Shown here piece by piece: positions 8,001-63,516 of a stretch of 64,000 nucleotides of DNA. A program made the position numbers and the translations under genes. The notes beneath the pieces were generated by a model. The model saw nothing but the letters and a program-made list of their open reading frames with translations, had not been told where the DNA came from and did no database searches. Every line of letters starts with the position of its first letter. Within the stretch, counting starts at the first letter, position 1. Source of the stretch: Eledone cirrhosa (Eukaryota); assembly GCA_964016885.1 (NCBI GenBank), contig OZ024740.1, positions 258,602,001 through 258,666,000 of the forward strand, read 5' to 3'.

Positions 8001-9361
8001 CCAAAAATGGGCTGGGAGGAAGCTATCACTGAAAGGTCGCGTGGAGGTGGCGAATGCGTACATCGCGTCTGTCATCTACTACCACCTGACTGTCGTGCCT
8101 TGCCCCCGTCCGCGCCTCGTCAAGTTGGAACGGCTCCTCTTCAAATTCTTGTGGAAAGGACAAGTTCCATTGGTGAGGCGGTCCATCTGCTGCCAGCACC
8201 CTTTACGAGGAGGGCTGGGCATGCCGTGGCTAATGATGCGCAGACATGCGCTGAGGCTGCGACATCTCCAGATATTCTTCCTAAACGGTGAACCGGTGTG
8301 GTCGCCGTTTATCAGACGTGCCTTTCCGCAGCTCGTTATTTTGACTAAGCTGCAGTCCTGGGTCAAGACTGAGTGACTGGCACCTGGAATGTTGCCAGGC
8401 ACTCACTGCCCTTTACCAAGTGAACAATGCGATCAGTGGAACTTCCACTCTCGAGTTCTATAGAGGATTAGTGGTGGGCAAGTGCGATGACGCACTCGGA
8501 GAAGCTTTGGGCCTCGACGAAATCGAACTGACCAGTCTGTACCGGAGGACTTTCGAGCCGGGGACGATGGACAATTTCCAGAAATCCCTCGCTTGGCAGT
8601 GCTACCGGGGGGCACTGCCGGTTCGGGATAAACTCTACAGGCACGGAAGTGCTGTCAGACGGACCTGCCCAAGATGCGCACAGAGCGACAAAACCGTTCT
8701 GCACGCACTTGTCCAATGTCCGTGCATTACTGACTTGTGGAGTTATGTCGAACAGCTACTGTCGCGTGTGGAACGGATCCGGGTATCGGCCGAGTCCATA
8801 GTGAAGATCGACCCGCCATCTTCCTTAGGTCAGGAAGAGCAGGCAATTTTCCTCTGTCTGGTGGCAGTTGCGAAAGAGGTGATATGGTGGACCAGATTAA
8901 AAGGACTGAAGACAGATACTTTTCTCTTCGGCCAATCCCTCATCAACTTCTTCAAGTTTCACCTGGAAAGGAAGGTGAGGGTGGAGAGAGAAGTGATGCC
9001 CCGCAGTACATTTGCTAAAAGGTGGATGAATGTGGCGAGAATGGCCCGTGTGAATGGGCCTACTCTGACCATGCGCCTATAGGCTAGCTAACTTGAGGGG
9101 AGGGGTGCTCTTCCTGGGTGCCCTAGAAGCGCAGGGTGGTTCAGGATTGGTGGGGTACCTGAGTCATCCCTGGGTCGTCCACCCCTATAGGGGAATTTAT
9201 TTTCTTATATTTATGCATAGATTATTTTATATTTTTTATATCTTCATTGTTAAATTAGTCTTGCCATTGTGCACTTTTACTCGACCTTATTGTAAACCCC
9301 CACTGTCCCTGTCTTTGTATTGTCCCCTACATGTCGGCCCTTGTGGCTAATAAATGAAATC
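5056..9361 (+). mobile_element. Tx1-clade (L1 group) LINE copy A, 5'-truncated inside ORF1, degraded
   Basis: APE motifs (VGSLNVRGL, AVSETRI, AGDWN, YSDHK), RT motifs (KSPGLDGLPYELY, FRPITLLNTEFKILAK, RQGCPLS), C-terminal CPRC..H..C, 3' UTR with AATAAA. (TTA)n on both flanks. Confidence 0.9.
5928..9082 (+). pseudogene. Tx1 copy A ORF2 (APE endonuclease-RT), disrupted
   Basis: CAACATG start at 5928, stop at 9082. Frameshifts, stops and two internal deletions, one removing the YADD motif. Confidence 0.85.
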
Positions 9362-17266: not shown

Positions 17267-20265
17267 ATGGCCGCACTCAGAATAGGCAGTATAAATGCAC
17301 GTGGCCTGGGTCATCTTGGAAGCAGGGTCACTAAACATAGATGTGGTGGCCATCAGTGAGACCAGAATCTCTGAAGTACAAGCCTTCGCACCGATCTTTG
17401 GCGGCTACGATGTATACGCATCTCCCAGCCTTCCAGGAACAGGAGGAGGGGTTGCCGTCCTTTTTCGGAGATGCTTGGATCTCGCCATACGGGCCATCTT
17501 CCTAGACCCAGAAGGTAAGTCGGTGGTGCTGGACGTGACCGGCAGCGAAGGCAATGCTTTCAGTCTAGTAGCTGTCTACGCCCCAACAGGGGCAGGACGG
17601 CCAGATTTCTTTAGACGTCTAGAGACCTTTCTTGGAACGTCCCGCTCTTTAGTGTTAGTGGGCGACTGGAACGGTATCTTGGAGGCACGCTGGGATTGTG
17701 TGGGGCTAGTGGATAGGGGTGAGGGTGCCAGAGCCTCACCAACCTGCTCAGACGTTTTGAACTGTCTGACAGGTATCGACTGGACCACCCGAATGTGCCA
17801 ATGTGGACATGAACAAACCGCATCGGGTCATCCAGATCGTATCTCGATAGGGTATTCTGCAGAGAACTAGATAAGGCTAGTATAAGTTGTCCACAATTTA
17901 AAATAGTCGACTACACAGACCACAAATTTGTGATCTGTGGGATCGACATAGACAGACTTCATAGACAAGGGCCCGGTTACTGGAAGTTGAACACGTCTTT
18001 CCCGGCGCGCAAAGCCTACAGAGACCGAATTACCGTATTAGTTAAGCAGGCGTTGAGGGGAGCGGTCGTCAACTACAGGTGGTGGTTCGCCCTGAAAAGG
18101 CAATTAAAATAGAGGCGATTAGGTTTAGCAAAGGTCTAGTCATAGAGGAAAATAGAGTAGAGGGAGAGCTAGTCAGAAAGCTAGAAGAGGCGTTTAGGAC
18201 AGGCATCGCAACCGACGTGCTTGCGGCGAGATTGGCACTCGACCAATTCTTCAACGCAAAACACGAAGGCGGCGTTGTCAGAGCTAGAGCGCGTGCTCTG
18301 AAACACGAGGGGACAAAACCCGTCCAATGGGCCCGGGTGGCATAGACGCGACGTGGCAATAAAGCCACAATTCGGTCTTTGTCTGACCAAAACAGGTGCG
18401 TGTTGCTCGAACCCGAGCAGATGTGTGAAGCTTTCCAGCATCACTTTGCTGAACTGTTCGGGGGCAGCGGCGGCCCGGATCGGGGCATGGACTTCAGTGC
18501 ATACCTCGACGGACTGCCTCGGCTCTCGACGACCACAGCACACTGTTGCGAAAAGCCAATAACAGCCGGTGAAATACGGGAAGCGATGGCTAACTGCACG
18601 AGGGGTAAATCGCCAGGTTTGGATGGTCTGCTCTACGAGCTTTATGCATTTATGCCAGACTTGTTCGGTGACCTCTTGGCAGTCTACTGCAACTGGCAGC
18701 AGAACGGGAGCATTCCCAGTTTTGTGAGCCGGGGAGCCGTGGCGCTGTGAGAGTGACCGGTCACCTGTCGCAGTCGTTTAGCATCATGCGCTCAGTCCGC
18801 CAGAGTTGTCCCCTCTCGTCCCTCTTGTACGTATTGGCTCTCGAGCCGTTACTGCACAAACTGGGGGCGATTAGGGGCGTCCCACGCGAACTGGGATGCG
18901 GGAAGTCCGAGTCGGCTTACGCCGACGACGTCAGCGTGGTGGTATCGAGCACCAGACACGTCCAGATGCTCGGCACCGTTCTCAAGGAATACGAAGCGGT
19001 GACAGGAGCAAAGATAAACCAGGAAAAGTCGGTGGGCTTGCAGCTCGGCACCTGGAGAGGCAAGTCCATGCCGTCCGACAGCGTCGTGGGGCGTTGGACT
19101 GACGGACCGGTTAAATTGCTCGGGGTCTGGTTCGGACCGGACCTCCAGATGGAGAAAAACTGGAACGAGGTGACGAACAAGGTGGCCTCCCTCACTCAGA
19201 AATGGGCCGAGAGGAAGCTGTCCCTGAAAGGCCGGGCGGAGGTGGCGAATGCGTACATCGCATCCGTCATCTGCTACCGCCTCACCGTCGTCCCTTGCCC
19301 CGGCTCAACTCTCACCAAAATGGAGCGCCTCCTCTTCCGCTTTTTGTGGAAGGGACGCGCTCCCATGGTCAGACGATCCATCTGCCGTCAACACCCATTG
19401 CGTGGAGGACTGGGCATGCCATGTCTGATGATGCGCAAACAAGCGCTGAGGCTGCGACATCTCTGGTGCTTTCTTGACGGTGAACAAGTGTGGTCGCCGT
19501 TCGCCAGGCACGTTTTCCCACAGCTCGTCCCCTTGGCGGAGCTGCAGTCCTGGGTCAGAACAAGACCGAGGGATAGCGCTTGGAAACTGGAATGTCTCCA
19601 GGCGGTCACTGCCCTCTGCCAGCTGGGTACGAGTATCGGTGGAACATCCACCTTGGCGTCCTATAGAGGACTAGTGGAGGGGAAGAGCGACGACGTTCTC
19701 GGAGAGATCCTGGGCGTCCAAGAAGATCAGTTGTTTGCTCTCTTCCGGAGAACTTTCTGCCCAGGGCCTATGGATAACTTCCAAAAATCCCTGGCCTGGC
19801 AGTGGTACCGGGGAGCACTGCCGGTTCGAGATAAGCTCTACAGGCACGGAAGTGCCGTCAGCCGAGCATGTCCGAGATGCGCCGAAACCGTCGTGCACGC
19901 ACTCCTTCAGTGCCCGAGCATTGCTGACTCGTAGAGCTATGTCGAACATTTGCTGTCACGTGTAGGACGGATCAGGTTATCGACTGAGTCCATTGTGCAG
20001 ATGGTCTCACCGTCTTCATTCGAGGGGGAAGAGCAGGCGGTTTTCATCTACCTGGTGGCCATGCGAAAGAGATTGTATGGTGGGGAAGGTTGAAAGGGTT
20101 AAAGACACTTTCCTCTTCGGCGAATCCCCAATTAACTTTTTCAAGTTTCACTTGAAGAGGAAAATCAGGGTGGAGAGGCAAGTGCTGCCTTCCAGCAAGT
20201 TTGTTGAAAGGTGGGTGAATGTAGCGAGAATGGTCCGAGTGAACGGGACCGCGTCTGTAGTTTGA
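17267..20265 (+). pseudogene. Tx1 copy C ORF2 (APE-RT), disrupted
   Basis: CAACATG start, APE motifs, deletion near 18747 removing the N-terminal RT subdomains, YADD retained. Confidence 0.85.
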
Positions 20266-24509: not shown

Positions 24510-27500
24510 AACGTCATCACCACTACCGCCAACACCATCACCACTACCACCAATACCATCACCACTACCACCAACACCATCACCACTACCACCAACACCA
24601 TCACCACTACCGCCAACACCATCACCACTACCACCAATACCATCACCACTACCACCAATACCATCACCACTACCACCAACACCATCACCACTACCACCAA
24701 TACCATCACCACTACCACCAATACCATCACCACTACCACCAACACCATCACCACTACCACCAACACCATCACCACTACCGCCAACACCATCACCACTACC
24801 ACCAATACCATCACCACTACCACCAATACCATCACCACTACCACCAACACCATCACCACTACCACCAATACCATCACCACTACCACCAAAACCATCACCA
24901 CTACCACCAACACCATCACCACTACCACCAACACCATCACCACTACCACCAACGCCATCACCACTACCACCAACGCCATCACCACTACCACTACCACCAA
25001 TACCATCACCACTACCACCAACACCATCACCACTACCACTACCACCAATACCATCACCACTACCACCAACACCATCACCACTACCAACAATACCATCACC
25101 ACTACCACCAATACCATCACCACTACCACCAACACCATCACCACTACCACCAACACCATCACCACTACCGCCAACACCATCACCACTACCACCAATACCA
25201 TCACCACTACCACCAATACCATCACCACTACCACCAACACCATCACCACTACCACCAATACCATCACCACTACCACCAATACCATCACCACTACCACCAA
25301 CACCATCACCACTACCACCAACACCATCACCACTACCACCAACGCCATCACCACTACCACCAACGCCATCACCACTACCACTACCACCAATACCATCACC
25401 ACTACCACCAACACCATCACCACTACCACTACCACCAATACCATCACCACTACCACCAACACCATCACCACTACCACCAACGCCATCACCACTACCACTA
25501 CCACCAACGCCATCACCACTACCACCAATACCATCACCACTACCACCAATACCATCACCACTACCACCAACACCATCACCACTACCACCAACACTATCAC
25601 CACTACCATCGACACCATCACCACTACCACCAACGCCATCACCACCAATACCATCACCACTACCACCAATACCATCAGCACTACCACCAACACCATCACC
25701 ACTACCACCAACACCATCACCACTACCACCAACATCATCACCACTACCACCAACACCATCACCACTACCACCAACACCATCACCACTACCACCAACACTA
25801 TCACCACTACCACCAACACCATCACCACTACCACCAACACCATCACCACTACCACCAATACCATCAGCACTACCACCAACACCATCACCACTACCACCAA
25901 CACCATCACCACTACCACCAATACCATCAGCACTACCACCAACACCATCACCACTACCACCAACACCATCACCACTACCACCAACGCCATCACCACTACC
26001 ATCGACACTATCACCACTACCACCAACACCATCACCACTACCACCAATACCATCACCACTACCACCAACACCATCACCACTACCACCAACACTATCACCA
26101 CTACCATCGACACCATCACCACTACCACCAACACCATCACCACTACCACCAACACCATCACCACTACCACCAACACCATCACCACTACCACCAACGCCAT
26201 CACCACTACCATCGACACCATCACCACTACCACCAACACCATCACCACTACCACCAACACCATCACCACTACCACCAACACCATCACCACTACCACCGAC
26301 ACTATCACCACTACCATCAAGGCCATCACCACTACCACCAACACCATCACCACTACCGCCAACACCATCACCACTAACACCGACACCATCACCACTACCA
26401 CCAACACTATCACCACTACCATCAACACCATCACCACTACCACCAACACCATCACCACTACCACCAATACCATCAGCACTACCACCAATACCATCACCAC
26501 TACCACCAACACCATCACCACTACCACCAATACCATCAGCACTACCACCAACACCATCACCACTACCACCAACACCATCACCACTACCACCAACGCCATC
26601 ACCACTACCATCGACACTATCACCACTACCACCAACACCATCACCACTACCACCAACACCATCACCACTACCACCAACACTATCACCACTACCATCGACA
26701 CCATCACCACTACCACCAACACCATCACCACTACCACCAACACCATCACCACTACCACCAACGCCATCACCACTACCATCGACACCATCACCACTACCAC
26801 CAACACCATCACCACTACCACCAACACCATCACCACTACCACCAACACCATCACCACTACCACCGACACTATCACCACTACCATCAACGCCATCACCACT
26901 ACCACCAACAACATCACCACTACCGCCAACACCATCACCACTAACACCGACACCAGCACCACTACCACCAACACTATCACCACTACCATCAACGCCATCA
27001 CCAATACCACCAACACCATCACCACTACCACCAATACCATCACCACTACCACCAACACCATCACCACTACCACCAACGCCATCACCACTACCATCGACAC
27101 CATCACCACTACCACCAACACCATCACCACTACCACCAACACCATCACCACTACCACCAACACCATCACCACTACCACCGACACTATCACCACTACCATC
27201 AACGCCATCACCACTACCACCAACACCATCACCACTACCGCCAACACCATCACCACTAACACCGACACCATCACCACTACCACCAACACTATCACCACTA
27301 CCATCAACGCCATCACCACTAACACCGACACCATCACCACTACCACCAACACTATCACCACTACCATCTACGCCATCACCACTACCACCAACACCATCAC
27401 CACTACCGCCAACACCATCACCACTAACACCGACACCATCACCACTACCACCAACACTATCACCACTACCATCAACGCCATCACCACTAACACCGACACC

Positions 27501-30500
27501 ATCACCACTACCACCAACACTATCACCACTACCATCTACGCCATCACCACTACCACCAACACCATCACCACTACCGCCAACACCATCACCACTAACACCG
27601 ACACCATCACCACTACCACCAACACCATCACCACTACCACCAACACCATCACCACTACCACCAACGCCATCACCACTACCACTACCACCAACGCCATCAC
27701 CACTACCACCAATACCATCACCACTACCACCAATACCATCACCACTACCACCAACGCCATCACCACCAATACCATCACCACTACCACCAATACCATCAGC
27801 ACTACCACCAACACCATCACCACTACCACCAACACCATCACCACTACCACCAACATCATCACCACTACCACCAACACCATCACCACTACCACCAACAATA
27901 TCACCACTACCACCAACACCATCACCACTACCACCAACACCATCACCACTACCACCAATACCATCAGCAATACCACCAACACCATCACCACTACCACCAA
28001 CACCATCACCACTACCACCAATACCATCAGCACTACCACCAACACCATCACCACTACCACCAACACCATCACCACTACCACCAACGCCATCACCACTACC
28101 ATCGACACTAACACCACTACCACCAACACCATCACCACTACCACCAATACCATCACCACTACCACCAACACCATCACCACTACCACCAACACTATCACCA
28201 CTACCATCGACACCATCACCACTACCACCAACACCATCACCACTACCACCAACACCATCACCACTACCACCAACACCATCACCACTACCACCAACGCCAT
28301 CACCACTACCATCGACACCATCACCACTACCACCAACACCATCACCACTACCACCAACACCATCACCACTACCACCAACACCATCACCACTACCACCGAC
28401 ACTATCACCACTACCATCAACGCCATCACCACTACCACCAACACCATCACCACTACCGCCAACACCATCACCACTAACACCGACACCAGCACCACTACCA
28501 CCAACACTATCACCACTACCATCTACGCCATCACCAATACCACCAACACCATCACCACTACCGCCAACACCATCACCACTAACACCGACACCATCACCAC
28601 TATCACCAACACCATCACCACTACCACCAACACCATCACCACTACCACCAACGCCATCACCACTACCACTACCACCAACGCCATCACCACTACCACCAAT
28701 ACCATCACCACTACCACCAATACCATCACCACTACCACCAATACCATCACCACTACCACCAATACCATCACCACTACCACCAAGACCATCACCACTACCA
28801 CTAACACCATCACCACTACCACCAACGCCATCACCACTACCACCAACGCCATCACCACTACCACTACCACCAATACCATCACCACTACCACCAACACCAT
28901 CACCACTACCACTACCAACAATACCATCACCACTACCACCAACACCATCACCACTACCACCAATACCATCACCACTACCACCAATACCATCACCACTACC
29001 ACCAACCCCATCACCACTACCACCAACACCATCACCACTACCACCAACGCCATCACCACTACCACCAACGCCATCACCACTACCACTACCACCAATACCA
29101 TCACCACTACCACCAACACCATCACCACTACCACTACCACCAATACCATCACCACTACCACCAACACCATCACCACTACCACCAACGCCATCACCACTAC
29201 CACTACCACCAACGCCATCACCACTACCACCAATACCATCACCACTACCACCAATACCATCACCACTACCACCAACACCATCACCACTACCACCAACACT
29301 ATCACCACTACCATCGACACCATCACCACTACCACCAACGCCATCACCACTACCATCAATACCATCACCACTACCACCAATACCATCAGCACTACCACCA
29401 ACACCATCACCACTACCACCAACACCATCACCACTACCACCAACATCATCACCACTACCACCAACACCATCACCACTACCACCAACACCATCACCACTAC
29501 CACCAACACTATCACCACTACCACCAACACCATCACCACTACCACCAACACCATCACCACTACCACCAATACCATCAGCACAACCACCAACACCATCACC
29601 ACTACCACCCACACCATCACCACTACCACCAACACCATCACCACTACCACCAACACCATCACCAGTACCACCAACGCCATCACCACTACCATCGACACCA
29701 TCACCACTACCACCAACACCATCACCACTACCACCAACACCATCACCACTACCACCAACACCATCACCACTACCACCGACACTATCACCACTACCATCAA
29801 CGCCATCACCACTACCACCAACACCATCACCACTACCGCCAACACCATCACCACTAACACCGACACCATCACCACTACCACCAACACTATCACCACTACC
29901 ATCAACGCCATCACCACTACCACCAACACCATCACCACTACCGCCAACACCATCACCACTAACACCGACACCATCACCACTACCACCAACACCATCACCA
30001 CTACCACCAACACCATCACCACTACCACCAACGCCATCACCACTACCACTACCACCAACGCCATCACCACTACCACCAACGCCATCACCACTACCACCAA
30101 CGCCATCACCACTACCACCAACGCCATCACCACTACCACCAATACCATCACCACTACCACCAACACCATCACCACTACCACCAACTGCATCACCACTACC
30201 ACCAACACCATCACCACTACCACCGACACCATCACCACTACCACCAACGCCATCACCACTACCACCAACACCATCACCACTACCACCAACACCATCACCA
30301 CTACCACCAATATCATCACCACTACCACCAACACCATCACCACTACCACCAACGCCATCACCACTACCACCAACACCATCACCACTACCACCAACGCCAT
30401 CACCACTACCACCAACACCATCACCACTACCACCAACACCATCACCACTACCACCAACGCCATCACCACTACCACCAACACCATCACCACTACCACCAAT

Positions 30501-31660
30501 ACCATCACCACTAACACCGACACCATCACCACTACCACCAACACCATCACCACTACCACCAACGCCATCACCACTACCACCAACACCATCACCACTACCA
30601 CCAACACCTTCACCACTACTACCAACACCATCGACACTACCTCCAATACCATCACCACTACCACCAACACCATCACCACTACCACCAACACCATCACCAC
30701 TACCACCAATACCATCACCACTACCACCAACACCATCACCACTACCACCAACACCATCACCACTACTACCAACACCATCGACACTACCTCCAATACCATC
30801 ACCACTACCACCAACACCATCACTACTACCACCAACGCCATCACCACTACCACCAACACCATCACCAGTACCACCAACACCATCACCACTGCCACCAACA
30901 CCATCACCACTAACACCGACACCATCACCACTACCACCAACACTATTACCACTACCATCAACGCCATCACCACTACCGCCAACACCATCACCACTACCAC
31001 CAACACCATCACCACTACCACCGACACCATCACCACTACCACCAACACCATCACCAGTACCACCAACACCATCACCACTGCCACCAACACCATCACCACC
31101 AACACCGACACCATCACCACTACCACCAACACTATCACCACTACCATCAACGCCATCACCACTACCACCAACACCATCACCACTGCCACCAACACCATCA
31201 CCACTAACACCGACACCATCACCATTACCATCGACACCATCACCACTACCACCAACACCATCACCACTACCACCAACACCATCACCACTACCACCAACAC
31301 CATCACCACTACCACCAACACCATCACCACTACCACCAACACCATCACCACTACCACCAATACCATCACCACTACCACCTACACCATCACCACTACCACC
31401 AACACCATCACCACTACCACCAACACCATCACCACTACCACCAACACCATCACCACTACCACCAACACCATCACCACTACCACCAACACCATCACCACTA
31501 CCACCAACACCATCACCACTACCACCAACACCATCACCACTACCACCAACACCATCACCACTACCACCAACACCATCACCACTACCACCAACACCATCAC
31601 CACTACCACCAACACCATCACCACTACCACCAACACCATCACCACTACCACCAACACCAT
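24510..31660. repeat. 21-bp minisatellite (ACCATCACCACTACCACCAAC)n, about 340 units
   Basis: Direct periodicity, with variant 15-bp and 27-bp units and recurring blocks of variants. Confidence 0.97.
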
Positions 31661-31914: not shown

Positions 31915-32346
31915 TTTTGATGGTGGTGGTAATGGTGATGGTGAGGGCAGTGGTGGCGGTGGTGATGGTGGTGGTGTTGGTGGTGGTGTTGGTGGTGGTG
32001 GTGGCTAGGTGGTAGTAGTTGTGCTGGTGCTTGTGGAGGCTAGGTGGTAGTAATGGTGCTGGTGGTAGTGATGGTGGTGGTGGTGATAGTGGTGGTGATA
32101 GTGGTGGTGGTGGTAGTGGTAGTGGTGGTGGGGGCGGGGGTGGTAGTGGTGGTGGTGGTAGTGGTAGTGATAGTGGTGCTGGTGGTAGTAGTTGTGGTGG
32201 TGGTGGTGGTAGTGGTGGTGGTAGTGGTGGTGGTGGTGGTAGTGGTGGTAGTGTTGGTGGTGGTGGTGGTGCTGATAGTGGTGCTGCTGGTAGTGGTAGA
32301 GGTGGTGGTGGTAGTAGTGGTGGTGGTGGTGGTGGTAGTGTTGGTA
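31915..32346. repeat. Degenerate (GGT)n low-complexity tract
   Basis: Seen directly. Confidence 0.9.
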
Positions 32347-37065: not shown

Positions 37066-37898
37066 TGGTGAGAGTGATTAATATAGTGGTAGAACACTGG
37101 AAGGTAATATCCGTAGTGGTAGAGCACTCAGTCCATGGGACGGGTTAGGTAGAAGTGGTTACACAACAATTGTTCTCGGTATGGTGAACTAACTGTTGTG
37201 TAACCACTTATATATATATATATATATATATATAGGAGTACTGTGATCCTTGCGATTTCGAGATATACAACCACTGACACTGTTACGAAGACCAGAAAAC
37301 CATACTCCATAATATTGAACCAAGTGATTGATTTGTGCGACCAAAATAACACCACACACATATTGAACTAGGAATATTGGATCCTCCGTCAATGTCTGGG
37401 TGAGCAAAAATAGATTTCTATCTGCATTGGAATTTACGAACTTGTGCATCTGCTGTGGTGTCAAAAACAAACGCACATGACCGCACAGATAAACAATGGA
37501 CTATGCCACGTGGATTGAATCCGTAAGTGAATTGAAGGTTCTGTAACTCTGATATACAGATTATTTATTATTAAGATGTATAAACTTGACATAACTATTA
37601 TCATCTTATATTCTCTCAACTAATCACATTTGATCATATTTCTCTATCCCGTTTTCTCCCCTCATAATTATAAAATCAATTAAATTAAAAATGTACATCC
37701 ACATATGTATACTGAAATACTAGTATGCATATGAATACACACACGTGTACATATGTAGATGTACCGAGTTTTTCACTGGACACTTTACTGTGAGTGTCCA
37801 GCTATTCTGTATGTAAACACACAGACAAACCGGTTTTTAGAGTCATACTGGTTTTCGAGGAAACACCTTTCCTCTATTCTCCAGAAAGCCAGACAAGG

Positions 37899-37943
37899 AA
37901 TATTGGACTAGTTTCGATGTTGTTACATCTCATCAGCAATATT
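37899..37943 (-). ncRNA. Type I hammerhead ribozyme (array unit 1)
   Basis: Reverse complement reads aatattg-CTGATGA-gatgt aaca acatc-GAA-AC ta GT-C-caatatt. Confidence 0.88.
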
Positions 37944-38364
37944 TACCTATCTTCCGGCCTTTCTAGAGAATCGTAAAAGCACATATCGTTATATGCTTTT
38001 TCTATGAAAATTAGTAGTGGGCAGACTAATTTGCATAGAGCGTGAGTACGTACCGGTTCAGCGGAGACGATAAAAACAAATAACGAAACGAAATTAAATT
38101 TCGTTTCGTTTGTAACTCACTTTTGTATGACTGACGCTTAAACAATTAAATTAAAAATGTACATCCACATATGTATACTGAAATACTAGTATGCATATGA
38201 ATACACACACGTGTACATATGTAGATGTACCGAGTTTTTCACTGGACACTTTACTGTGAGTGTCCAGCTATTCTGTATGTAAACACACAGACAAACCGGT
38301 TTTTAGAGTCATACTGGTTTTCGAGGAAACACCTTTCCTCTATTCTCCAGAAAGCCAGACAAGG

Positions 38365-38409
38365 AATATTGGACTAGTTTCGATGTTGTTACATCTCATC
38401 AGCAATATT
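38365..38409 (-). ncRNA. Type I hammerhead ribozyme (array unit 2)
   Basis: Same sequence as unit 1, +466. Confidence 0.88.
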
Positions 38410-38830
38410 TACCTATCTTCCGGCCTTTCTAGAGAATCGTAAAAGCACATATCGTTATATGCTTTTTCTATGAAAATTAGTAGTGGGCAGACTAATTTGC
38501 ATAGAGCGTGAGTACGTACCGGTTCAGCGGAGACGATAAAAACAAATAACGAAACGAAATTAAATTTCGTTTCGTTTGTAACTCACTTTTGTATGACTGA
38601 CGCTTAAACAATTAAATTAAAAATGTACATCCACATATGTATACTGAAATACTAGTATGCATATGAATACACACACGTGTACATATGTAGATGTACCGAG
38701 TTTTTCACTGGACACTTTACTGTGAGTGTCCAGCTATTCTGTATGTAAACACACAGACAAACCGGTTTTTAGAGTCATACTGGTTTTCGAGGAAACACCT
38801 TTCCTCTATTCTCCAGAAAGCCAGACAAGG

Positions 38831-38875
38831 AATATTGGACTAGTTTCGATGTTGTTACATCTCATCAGCAATATT
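38831..38875 (-). ncRNA. Type I hammerhead ribozyme (array unit 3)
   Basis: Same sequence, +932. Confidence 0.88.
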
Positions 38876-39296
38876 TACCTATCTTCCGGCCTTTCTAGAG
38901 AATCGTAAAAGCACATATCGTTATATGCTTTTTCTATGAAAATTAGTAGTGGGCAGACTAATTTGCATAGAGCGTGAGTACGTACCGGTTCAGCGGAGAC
39001 GATAAAAACAAATAACGAAACGAAATTAAATTTCGTTTCGTTTGTAACTCACTTTTGTATGACTGACGCTTAAACAATTAAATTAAAAATGTACATCCAC
39101 ATATGTATACTGAAATACTAGTATGCATATGAATACACACACGTGTACATATGTAGATGTACCGAGTTTTTCACTGGACACTTTACTGTGAGTGTCCAGC
39201 TATTCTGTATGTAAACACACAGACAAACCGGTTTTTAGAGTCATACTGGTTTTCGAGGAAACACCTTTCCTCTATTCTCCAGAAAGCCAGACAAGG

Positions 39297-39341
39297 AATA
39301 TTGGACTAGTTTCGATGTTGTTACATCTCATCAGCAATATT
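39297..39341 (-). ncRNA. Type I hammerhead ribozyme (array unit 4)
   Basis: Same sequence, +1398. Confidence 0.88.
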
Positions 39342-39873
39342 TACCTATCTTCCGGCCTTTCTAGAGAATCGTAAAAGCACATATCGTTATATGCTTTTTC
39401 TATGAAAATTAGTAGTGGGCAGACTAATTTGCATAGAGCGTGAGTACGTACCGGTTCAGCGGAGACGATAAAAACAAATAACGAAACGAAATTAAATTTC
39501 GTTTCGTTTGTAACTCACTTTTGTATGACTGACGCTTAAACAATTAAATTAAAAATGTACATCCACATATGTATACTGAAATACTAGTATGCATATGAAT
39601 ACACACACGTGTACATATGTAGATGTACCGAGTTTTTCACTGGACACTTTACTGTGAGTGTCCAGCTATTCTGTATGTAAACACACAGACAAACCGACAA
39701 ACACACAGACAAACGAAATTTAATTTCGTTTCGTTATTTGTTTTTATCGTCTCCGCTGAACCGGTACGTACTCACGCTCTATGCAAATTAGTCTGCCCAC
39801 TACTAATTTTCATAGAAAAAGCATATAACGATATGTGCTTTTACGATTCTCTAGAAAGGCCGGAAGATAGGTA

Positions 39874-39918
39874 AATATTGCTGATGAGATGTAACAACAT
39901 CGAAACTAGTCCAATATT
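39874..39918 (+). ncRNA. Type I hammerhead ribozyme (inverted arm, unit 5)
   Basis: aatattgCTGATGAgatgtaacaacatcGAAACtaGTCcaatatt, predicted cleavage after 39911. Confidence 0.9.
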
Positions 39919-40339
39919 CCTTGTCTGGCTTTCTGGAGAATAGAGGAAAGGTGTTTCCTCGAAAACCAGTATGACTCTAAAAACCGGTTTGTCTGTGTGT
40001 TTACATACAGAATAGCTGGACACTCACAGTAAAGTGTCCAGTGAAAAACTCGGTACATCTACATATGTACACGTGTGTGTATTCATATGCATACTAGTAT
40101 TTCAGTATACATATGTGGATGTACATTTTTAATTTAATTGTTTAAGCGTCAGTCATACAAAAGTGAGTTACAAACGAAACGAAATTTAATTTCGTTTCGT
40201 TATTTGTTTTTATCGTCTCCGCTGAACCGGTACGTACTCACGCTCTATGCAAATTAGTCTGCCCACTACTAATTTTCATAGAAAAAGCATATAACGATAT
40301 GTGCTTTTACGATTCTCTAGAAAGGCCGGAAGATAGGTA

Positions 40340-40384
40340 AATATTGCTGATGAGATGTAACAACATCGAAACTAGTCCAATATT
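40340..40384 (+). ncRNA. Type I hammerhead ribozyme (inverted arm, unit 6)
   Basis: Same sequence as unit 5, +466. Confidence 0.9.
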
Positions 40385-41235
40385 CCTTGTCTGGCTTTCT
40401 GGAGAATAGAGGAAAGGTGTTTCCTCGAAAACCAGTATGACTCTAAAAACCGGTTTGTCTGTGTGTTTACATACAGAATAGCTGGACACTCACAGTAAAG
40501 TGTCCAGTGAAAAACTCGGTACATCTACATATGTACACGTGTGTGTATTCATATGCATACTAGTATTTCAGTATACATATGTGGATGTACATTTTTAATT
40601 TAATTGTTTAAGCGTCAGTCATACAAAAGTGAGTTACAAACGAAACGAAATTTAATTTCGTTTCGTTATTTGTTTTTAATTATAAAATCTTTATTTGAAA
40701 AAATCGGTTTTTTTACATTGTGTTTTCCCCTTCAAATACTTGCTTATATTTCTTTATATATTCTCTATATATTTTTTTATATATATATTTTTTATCTTTA
40801 TTCTTATTTTCACTTTTATCCTCCTTTATATTTTACCTTATTCTTACTTTTATACCTTATTATAGTGAAATCTTCCCCATGCCTTATTATACATTATTAA
40901 TTATAGATTATTATTATTACTCTTTTTCCATTTCTAATTACCTCATGTACTTTCTCCTCCGTTATATATATATATATAGTGTATGCCCTTTGTGTTTGTG
41001 TAGCCTCTGCACACCCTCTGCACCCTACTATCGACGCCACCCCATCTATGGTTCAGCTAACCACTCGACTCCCGGGAATGAATATGACCGCAGCTAGTAA
41101 ACAAGGACCCACACCCCACTCTCCCGCACCAAAATTAGACTTATCGTCCCCTACTTTTGCTCTTTACTCTCTTTACTCTTTGTTCTTGAATGTTTGGTTG
41201 GTAGAGTCCATAACACCAATCAAACCCCTTTTATA

Positions 41236-41280
41236 GCTCTGACGAATCCTACGGTTACGTAAGGAAGAAACATTGTAAGC
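41236..41280 (+). ncRNA. Minimal hammerhead ribozyme (probable PLE pLTR)
   Basis: gct-CTGACGA-a-tcctacg gtta cgtaagga-a-GAAAC att GTA-agc. Confidence 0.65.
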
Positions 41281-41499
41281 CAATACAAATCTTTTGATGT
41301 TGTAGACGCTCTTGTGTTCTTTATCATATATATATATACATATATAAATATATATATATGTGTATATATATATATATGTATATAGGAACCAGTTATTCCT
41401 ATTACCAACTCAACTACCCTAAGTATTGAGTACTTTGGTGCGTTATGGTCCACCTGGTTCCTTACCACATTTCCTTCCACATTTCCTTCGTTAAATATG

Positions 41500-61186: not shown

Positions 61187-62970
61187 CATTTCTTTATTAG
61201 CCACAAGGGCACAAAAGAAGGGGACAAATACAAATGGGGAGTTTACATACAGGTGTATGAAAATAAAACTATTAATAAAATAACAAATAACAATTAATAT
61301 CCCCAATAGGGGGGAGGTGTTACACAGGGGTTGTACACACCCCGAAAAAATGTACAACCCTCATCTCCAGGAGCACCAAGAGTGAGTACACCCTTCCTCT
61401 CTTCCTCTTTTTCTTCAACCTACAGGCTTATATAGATAGAAGGCCCAACCACTCGGGCCATCTTTGCCACATTCACCCACCTTTTATAAAATTTTCTGGG
61501 GTACAGCACCTCTCTCTCCATCCTGATTCTTCTTCCAAAATGATATTTGAAAAAACGAATCAGTTGCTCGCCGGAGAGAAAGGTGTCTGACCTCAGCCCT
61601 TTTAACATCGTCCACCATATAACCTCTTTCACCATAGCCATAACACATAGGAAAACCGCTTCTCCCTCGTTTTTGAAGGAGGGTGGTGGTTTGATCGTGA
61701 CAATGGACTCGGTGGTCAACTGGATTGGTCCCACCCGCTACAATAGTCGTTCCACATAGCCCCACAGGTCTGTAACGCCCGGGCAGTGCACAAATGCGTG
61801 CGCGACGGTTTCCTCGTCGCACACGCATCTCGGACAGATCTTTTTCGAAGGGTCCCTACCCGGGCGCCCGTGTCTGTAGAGCTTGTCTCGAACTGGTAGA
61901 GCTCCTCGGTAGCACTGCCAGGCCAGGGACTTTTGGAAGTTGTCCATTGGTCCCGGGCGGAAGGTCCTACCAAACAGACTGGCCAGTTCGTCCTCCGCTA
62001 CGCCTAGAGTTTCTCAGAGCACGTCGTCGCACTTGCTGCGGACCAACCCTCTATAGAATGTCGAAGTGGAGTCTCCACTGATCGCCGGGTCCGTTTGCCA
62101 GAGGACTGTGAGCGCCTGAGCACATTCGATGTGCCAGTCGCCCATTTTCCTCGGTATTTGCTTGACCCAGGACTGCGGCTCGGTCAGCGAGACGAGTTGT
62201 GGGAAGGCTCGCCTCACGAATGGGGCCCACACCTTTTGTCTGGTGAGGAATACGTGGAGGTGCCGCAGCCTGAGCGCGTGTTTGCGCATCGTCAGCCAGG
62301 GGATCCTCAGCCCTCCGTTTGAAGGGTGTTGGCAGGAGATGGATCTTTTCACCAAAGGAGCCCGTTTCTTCCAAAGGAATTGGAAGAGCGCGCGCTCCAT
62401 TTTGGTGAGCGTTTTGGCTGGACAAGGCACGTCGGTCAAGCGGTAGCAGATGATGGACGCTATAAAAGTGTTCGCCACCTCCGCTCGAACTTTCAAGGAT
62501 AATTTGCACTTTGCCCACTTCTGGGTGAGCGCAAACGCCTTGGCCGTCACCTCGTTCCAGTTCTTCTCCACCTCGAGGTCAGGACCAAACCAGACCCCGA
62601 GCAGCTTTACCGGTCCTTTCGTCCAGCGTCCGACGACGCCATCGGAAGGCATCGGTTTGCCTCTCCACGTTCCGAGTTGCAAACCGACGGATTTGTCCCG
62701 GTTCAGCTTCGCTCCTGTGAACCTTTCGAATTCCACCAGTAAGGTGCCGATCTCCCCGATTTGCGAGGTGCTCGACACCATTACTATAATGTCGTTGGTG
62801 TAGGCCGACGCCGCTTTTCGCAGTCCCGATTCCAGAGGTATGCCCTGCAATAGCTCCAACTTCCGCAGTAGTGGCTCGAGAGTCAGTACGTACAGAAGGG
62901 GGGAGAGAGGGCATCCCTGTCGAATGGATCGCGTGATATGGAACGGCTCCGAGAGGTAGGCGTTCACCTT
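61187..62970 (-). mobile_element. Tx1-clade LINE, 5'-truncated in RT, (GATA)n on both flanks
   Basis: RSIRQGCPLSPLLYVL, SAYTNDII (degenerate YADD), MDNFQKSLAWQCYRGALPVRDKL, CPRC..H..C. Confidence 0.9.
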
Positions 62971-62989
62971 GATAGATAGATAGATAGAT

Positions 62990-63062
<73 letters not shown>

Positions 63063-63516
63063 CATACATAGATAGATAGATACATAGATGGTCATCATTT
63101 TGTTATCACCAAATTCATCATCATTATAATCTTCAAATCCCTCCTAGGCTAACTTTGCCTATCATCCTTACGGGGTTGATAAAATAAAGTACCAGTAATG
63201 CACTGGATTAACTGCTGGTCTTCAACAACATCTTTAACAAAATCATCACTATCATCCTCATCACCATCATCATCACTATAATCATCACTATCATCACATT
63301 CATCGTCATCACTATCTGCATCATTCTCATCACTACCATCATCGCTACCATCATCACATCAAACGCCAACACCATCACCACTATCACCAGCAACACCACT
63401 ACCATCACCACCAACACCACCAACACCACCACCATTACCAGCAACAATATCAAACCACCACAAACGCCAACACTAACACCGCCGCCACTAAACCCCCACC
63501 ATCATCAACCGTATCA

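Follow-up and report, generated by a model that had tools for sequence, protein, structure and literature searches.

A hammerhead retrozyme of Eledone cirrhosa with two fixed, paired insertion ends like those of Penelope-like elements

A 64,000-nt stretch of the Eledone cirrhosa genome (assembly GCA_964016885.1, contig OZ024740.1, positions 258,602,001 to 258,666,000; hereafter the window) contains an insertion made of tandem 466-nt units, each with a type I hammerhead ribozyme, in two arms that point outwards from a common junction. We read it as a non-autonomous, non-coding hammerhead retrozyme moved in trans by a Penelope-like element (PLE) of the Neptune type, usually via a monomer circle, and give this complete reading a probability of about 0.6. 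Numbering the monomer from window position 39912, the left arm (37677-39696, minus strand, 2020 nt) comprises 4.33 units with an outer end at position 229 and an inner end at position 74, and the right arm (39711-40678, plus strand, 968 nt) comprises 2.08 units with an inner end at position 266 and an outer end at position 301. Tandem Repeats Finder gives both arrays a period of 466 and 100% matches (4.3 and 2.1 copies), and exact extension finds zero mismatches to the monomer, as in the preliminary description of this DNA, which was made by eye and had reported inverted runs of identical units. The arms are separated by a 14-nt filler (39697-39710) that duplicates nearby left-arm sequence, a back-to-back junction suggestive of end joining. 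The six type I hammerheads that had been described are present, with four cores on the minus strand (37906-37936, 38372-38402, 38838-38868, and 39304-39334) and two on the plus strand (39881-39911 and 40347-40377). The interval between two successive cleavage sites, one monomer, occupies 39912-40377 (plus strand, 36% GC). There is no credible open reading frame (ORF), the longest stop-free frame in the multimer having 60 codons.

The target-site duplication (TSD) of this copy is TAATTATAAAATC, found exactly twice in the window, at 37665-37677 and 40677-40689. It overlaps the left arm by one base (37677) and the right arm by two (40677-40678). The insertion lies in a dispersed repeat, and all seven paralogues of this repeat that were fetched carry the 13-mer once, with the flanks joined; hence the 13-bp TSD is real, and the earlier claim of a single duplication from one event stands. 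The window copy is among the few loci with a readable TSD, as most flanks are TA-rich.

A DNA search of the 3.0-Gb genome, in which 39 of 335 candidates were scored, gave 324 matches. Many of these are 100% identical, and identical copies at many loci agree with the youth ascribed to the family. Two sets of loci were assembled, one of 32 loci from the best-listed DNA matches, with the window, where ends were not a selection criterion (set 1), and one of 40 loci from 124 matches to a one-end pattern (set 2). In the preliminary description, random phases of the ends were to speak for a circular template. Instead, the outer ends fall at two fixed sites of the monomer, S (228-233) and T (301, range 299-303), 73 nt apart. 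In set 1, the RNA 3′ end is at S (26) or T (25) in 51 of the 55 arms that are 300 nt or longer, and two of the remaining four arms are clipped by the end of the fetched stretch or of the contig. Back-to-back pairs are S+T in 40 of 45 cases and have one non-native end in the other 5, with no homotypic pair; for the 21 S+T pairs that were picked by their T end, only the other end constitutes a test. A list of ends on the first 143.8 Mb of C1 (57 S and 100 T ends, pairs within 16 kb) gave 26 S+T, one S+S, and one T+T among 28 back-to-back neighbours, 2 of the 26 being also among the 40. The T+T pair (C1:26556349/26562700) spans 6.3 kb, and its hammerhead positions suggest two separate insertions. 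Four loci that seem one-armed (L049, L056, L057, and L100) turn out to possess a second arm, 7-15 nt long. T ends that run into TA repeats number 1,948 genome-wide, and the corresponding S ends 1,052 (482 + 570, with patterns that miss tiny arms and variants); controls gave 0.

The surroundings of these ends are also regular. Of 40 loci, 29 have TA-rich DNA on either side; the other 11 have a TSD of 12-14 nt (10 loci) or 9 nt (one locus). Primer and RNA match over 1-4 nt at the outer ends, and the junctions between arms mostly show an overlap of 1-4 nt or a short filler. Because both arms point outwards, the geometry implies that the synthesis of each began at one of the 3′ ends left by the cut, which replaces the single target-primed event of the preliminary description by two priming sites, one at each outer end. 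Similarly, the position of the arm ends away from the cleavage site, once taken to favour a circle, follows from internal initiation (PMC11167929) and is silent on circularity. The phases of the inner ends are somewhat uneven (Kolmogorov-Smirnov P = 0.026 for 90 ends, P = 0.007 for the 63 arms with one unit or more), an unevenness that may only mirror the decay of length from fixed starts, and arm lengths correlate (rho 0.60); neither observation was used, the latter because the locus sets differ in selection. In conclusion, a staggered cut, priming at two sites, and back-to-back joining, with PLE involvement, very likely account for these insertions.

The same anatomy is found among PLEs with an endonuclease (EN+), in the Neptune clade. 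As far as the available parts of PMC3846280, PMC8557442, and PMC11167929 go, these elements share with the retrozyme the back-to-back arms, the tail at one end, two internal initiation sites with little homology to the primer, a hammerhead upstream of these sites, AT-rich or (TA)n targets (as in Neptune and Naiad), and TSDs of ~8-14 bp. They differ in that the retrozyme has no ORF and many units per arm. The tail-like S-to-T stretch, which in the window lies at 40140-40212 (plus strand) between the two fixed priming sites, has 73 nt in the retrozyme, compared with 30-40 nt in the EN+ PLEs of these sources and 60-64 nt in the coding PLEs of this genome. A purified PLE protein cuts and extends both strands of AT-rich DNA and starts its synthesis at two sites within the RNA, one at either border of the tail (PMC11167929); the start site was alike on both strands in vitro, whereas the pairing of one S with one T is near-strict here.

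The genome also contains coding PLEs. A scan for GIY-YIG domains gave 10,596 candidates, 150 of which were scored, and 42 loci plus six stretches of one family (B) were examined. The fetched loci have ORFs with a reverse transcriptase (RT), a C-terminal GIY-YIG, and a CX4CX2C linker, and the nearest named relatives of the protein are from bivalve molluscs. According to the accessible part of PMC8557442, the CX4CX2C motif is that of Neptune and Nematis and is linked to (TA)n targeting. Judged from this motif, the coding PLEs are Neptune-like. The two end sites are ~64 nt apart in family A (S+T in 3/3 two-armed copies) and ~60 nt apart in family B (5/5), i.e., the S/T layout is found in 8/8. The tandem unit of family B is 4,202 nt long, carries a hammerhead, and has two reading frames of 476 and 775 codons that overlap; the family must be very young, since 83 of the 150 listed RT matches are at 100% for it. 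Its two frames, in place of one ORF, are maintained across many copies (L147+L148, G000:C1:147232000-147245500), and it may use a frameshift or an intron. In family A (L134:5390-5440), a hammerhead-like motif with CAGAAGA instead of CUGANGA and a palindromic stem III (ACCGGU) lies ~80 nt upstream of the S end. An ORF with RT and GIY-YIG, as in an autonomous PLE, is absent from the retrozyme unit. Because S, T, and the 73-nt interval reproduce the tail signature of PMC11167929 and of the coding PLEs, mobilisation of the retrozyme in trans by a PLE enzyme is well supported by the insertion anatomy.

The ribozyme consists of CUGAUGA, a 4-bp stem II (GAUG/CAUC) with a UAACAA loop, GAAA, and a stem III of palindromic ACUAGU, that is, one pair with a palindromic CUAG loop, and is predicted to cleave after the GUC at 39911. 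As Rfam at the gathering score gives zero matches in the window, the hammerhead was called from sequence, folding, and variation among copies. The monomer folds at -158 kcal/mol (z-score -9.1). Two co-folded ribozymes form a 6-bp stem III with a small gain (-52.6 versus 2 x -25.1 kcal/mol), and the axolotl HHR_Amex1, which has a similar stem III of one pair and a palindromic tetraloop, is described as dimer-dependent in the available text of PMC7229834. Among 18 haplotypes, 95 substitutions leave the 11 core positions untouched, compensatory double changes number 5 versus 1.1 expected (P = 0.0035), and broken pairs are rarer than in shuffles (0.41 versus 0.59, in a control that ignores relatedness). 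From these patterns of sequence change, the ribozyme is under RNA-level constraint. The cleavage site itself (monomer position 466) is GUC in the youngest subfamily, GUU in older ones, and GUA in a sister family, and one stem II pair flips from A-U to U-A between subfamilies.

The variation within and between loci bears on the template. In 40/40 S+T loci the two arms have a common haplotype; they share as many as 33 fixed differences, and few differences are specific to one arm. The 41 loci of at least two units (a set from which L042, L085, and L093, mixed or cut, are left out) comprise 18 haplotypes. Each of the 14 older loci of set 2 has its own haplotype, with at least one private change in every covering unit (some of these changes depend on the placement of indels, and L064 is probably two pieces). 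The median is 20 fixed changes per unit between loci, against 0-3.7 within a locus, and minority changes are exemplified by L063 (2 in 20 units) and L081 (2 in 15 units). Cleavage junctions are read through without scars, with one indel within 4 nt among 334. Of the 24 loci that have both an S and a T arm and three or more units, 17 are homogeneous, 3 share unit-level variants between the arms, and in the other 4 recurrent variants occur in a single arm. Because arrays are homogeneous for haplotypes private to their locus, the lineage must have passed time and again through a single unit. A monomer circle would be the simplest such bottleneck and is probably the usual template, to judge from the distribution of variants; circles had already been proposed as templates for PLEs (PMC4209133, in the part available). 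Hence, between the two templates offered earlier, a circle or an uncleaved multimer, the circle is preferred, on the private homogeneous haplotypes and the scar-free read-through, with multimers at some loci.

Several observations weigh against this interpretation. L161, an older copy at 92-94% identity, is a genuine S+S insertion. The retrozyme has no sequence similarity to the coding PLE families A, B, and C (42+6 loci), and one family B arm (L151) begins exactly at the ribozyme cleavage site. In L035, L038, and L041, both arms share unit-to-unit variants, and thus the template must have held different units: L038 fits a dimer template, L041 has period 2 in one arm and period 3 in the other, and in L035 a shared marker recurs three units out of register. 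The recurrent variants limited to one arm (4/24 loci) and the variants shuffled in a 31-unit array indicate that arrays also turn over as DNA, so that length and homogeneity need not all stem from the RNA step. The arms of L066 and L101 start right at the cleavage site, the outcome expected of a linear cleaved RNA, though 2 of 90 inner ends within 2 nt of that site, with 1.0 expected, is not above chance (P = 0.25). Finally, the private variants may seem private only through the sampling of ~70 of some thousands of loci.

The pathway we propose would start with the transcription of tandem copies. Given its weak stem III, the hammerhead would cut efficiently only as a dimer, so that multimers would be processed and the ligated monomer circle would be stable. 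The next steps are shown by the insertion anatomy: AT-rich DNA, for the most part (TA)n, is cut by the PLE endonuclease with a stagger of ~12-14 nt, and the 3′ ends of both strands are extended, one cDNA beginning at T (301) and the other at S (228-233), with a primer-template match of only 1-4 nt. The cDNAs range from a few nucleotides to 15 units or more, cross intact cleavage sites with no fixed stop, and are joined back to back by 1-4 nt of microhomology or by a short filler. The usual template would be one monomer circle copied repeatedly, and the minority dimers or longer multimers. More tentatively, and against the odds as we see them, one PLE dimer might sit on one 466-nt circle, each subunit with its own start site and strand. 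If so, two rolling-circle reverse transcriptions of the same circle would meet back to back, and the retrozyme would imitate the structure of the PLE pseudo-long terminal repeat (pLTR) without sequence descent from its present partner. The dual-priming rule would then explain the inverted-arm-plus-tail anatomy of PLEs generally; the origin of the inverted arm and the one-sided tail is called undefined in PMC11167929 and in the accessible part of PMC8557442.

An alternative keeps PLE priming at S and T and replaces the circle by a long linear uncleaved multimer, with homogeneity arising from DNA-level amplification or conversion and the ribozyme being incidental. Such a template passes on unit-level variants, as would be needed for the heterogeneous loci, but it cannot alone spread a new change to every unit of the two arms, while all 14 older multi-unit loci carry their own fixed changes and most larger loci (17/24) are homogeneous. 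Nor would one expect an incidental ribozyme to keep its core untouched through 95 substitutions and to covary in stem II. We consider this alternative unlikely. The end-to-end jumping of reverse transcription between self-cleaved linear monomers is very improbable: it would also yield homogeneous arrays, and two arms do start exactly at the cleavage site, but the single indel at 334 junctions and the lack of enrichment of inner ends at that site argue against it. It is equally improbable that the unit merely belongs to a coding PLE as its pLTR, or that the array is a satellite born at the DNA level or an assembly artefact. The pLTR has a precedent in Xenopus, where 24 of 57 retrozyme families are homologous to transposable elements, mostly PLE pLTRs (10.64898/2026.07.22.740005, in the part available), and our comparison, which found no homology, is limited to families A, B, and C of this genome. 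However, no PLE coding match lies less than 2.2 kb from any arm (73 sequences, 4 of them with a distant match), and in these sequences the unit was never seen as the pLTR of such an element. A satellite or artefact is at odds with two-armed copies closed by target DNA on both sides, with a TSD confirmed against empty paralogues, and with the recurrence of the same ends in thousands of copies dispersed over the genome. Least probable of all is an inverted arm made by L1-type twin priming, or by fold-back self-priming as the available part of PMC3846280 proposes for the inverted repeats of PLEs. Either might account for single loci, the S end of the window (229) being 37 nt from the right-arm start (266), L041 being readable as consecutive segments, and the L090 junction being palindromic, but both were rejected as general rules, because an inner end is near the outer end of the other arm in 15/45 pairs (chance ~32%) and inner ends are within 20 nt of each other in 2/45 (4 expected), and because the poly(A) 3′ end and the second primer beside the first cDNA stop of L1 inversions are not seen here, where the second site is fixed and not free.

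By every sequence criterion, the element is an animal non-LTR retrozyme (LTR, long terminal repeat). The available parts of PMC7229834 and 10.64898/2026.07.22.740005 describe such retrozymes, like the one here, as tandem non-coding units with one type I hammerhead each, GC below 50%, and TSDs above 4 bp, dispersed and found alongside PLEs. They give unit lengths of 150-450 bp and 51-972 bp, respectively, and within the latter range 466 nt is not the rather long monomer that had been suggested. These retrozymes lack LTRs, primer-binding sites, and polypurine tracts; here the ends are fixed internal sites, and the latter two features were not searched separately. The plant LTR retrozymes differ from the element in having type III hammerheads within LTRs and a 4-bp TSD, compared with the type I core and 12-14-bp TSD found here. 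The non-autonomous Chlamys PLEs such as MRC1 (PMC8557442, in part), which are non-coding parasites of PLEs, also form multicopy head-to-tail insertions, but they occur in green algae, mostly lack hammerheads, and have a 3′ similarity to their autonomous partners that was not found for the retrozyme in families A, B, and C. Mobilisation of retrozymes by PLEs has been inferred from shared ribozymes, co-occurrence, and pLTR homology (PMC7229834 and 10.64898/2026.07.22.740005, in the parts available), the last of which was not found here in a comparison with three PLE families. The back-to-back arms, fixed ends, and tail are not described in those parts of the two works, and the words "inverted" and "orientation" do not occur in that of PMC7229834. 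A literature search, whose coverage mostly leaves out subscription journals, found no report of fixed, paired two-site ends in retrozyme arrays.

The element is thus a large, recently active addition to a known class, and the PLE tail is also known already. PLE mobilisation of animal retrozymes and circular templates have remained hypotheses in print, and thousands of recent insertions expose the mechanism through fixed starts, the S+T pairing rule, TSD length, and template markers at the level of the unit. For tests in vitro, the family offers a substrate of 466 nt on which both start sites are mapped, and the genome a coding PLE that is very young.

Exact patterns find 7,819 ribozyme cores of the 466-nt family genome-wide, and sampled copies are ~87 to 100% identical. 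A looser pattern finds 19,093 cores and takes in a 468-nt sister family (L093:2011-6402; also L143 and L144), roughly half identical to the first in pairwise comparison, which probably makes up most of the remaining ~11,000 cores. The sister family shares with the 466-nt family the back-to-back layout in (TA)n, the UAACAA loop, and the palindromic stem III, and differs in stems I and II, in its GUA cleavage site, and in having its two ends ~55 nt apart. L145+L146 (G000:C1:5738087-5752751) hold one S+T insertion, an arm of which has 31 units with recurrent variants shuffled among them; it is a retrozyme insertion becoming a satellite. Near-identical pieces occur at low depth in contigs of two other organisms, from which no inference was drawn.

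The repeat that received the insertion (37235-37664 and 40690-41370, the latter end being approximate) is dispersed, ~1.1 kb long, non-coding, and bounded by (TA)n, with 747 candidates and 97-98% identity between copies. Some copies (L156, L157, and L159) contain inverted segments, and it is possibly another PLE parasite. A hammerhead-like motif in it (~41245-41280) folds no better than shuffles (z-score -0.94). Among contigs of four runs, those of run X1 have joints that skip 3,012 nt across the window insertion; as their flanks belong to this multi-copy repeat and the intervening letters have the form of a paralogue, the joints do not show an empty allele there. Elsewhere in the window, a 21-bp minisatellite, CATCACCACTACCACCAACAC, spans 24515-31660 with 337 copies and extreme strand skew, is stop-free over more than 2,400 codons in several frames, and adjoins a (TGG)n tract (31921-32345). 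Fragments of LINE-type reverse transcriptases (RVT_1, zf-RVT) lie at 471-1208, 8345-9079, 18672-19931, and 62017-63102 and are unrelated to the insertion.

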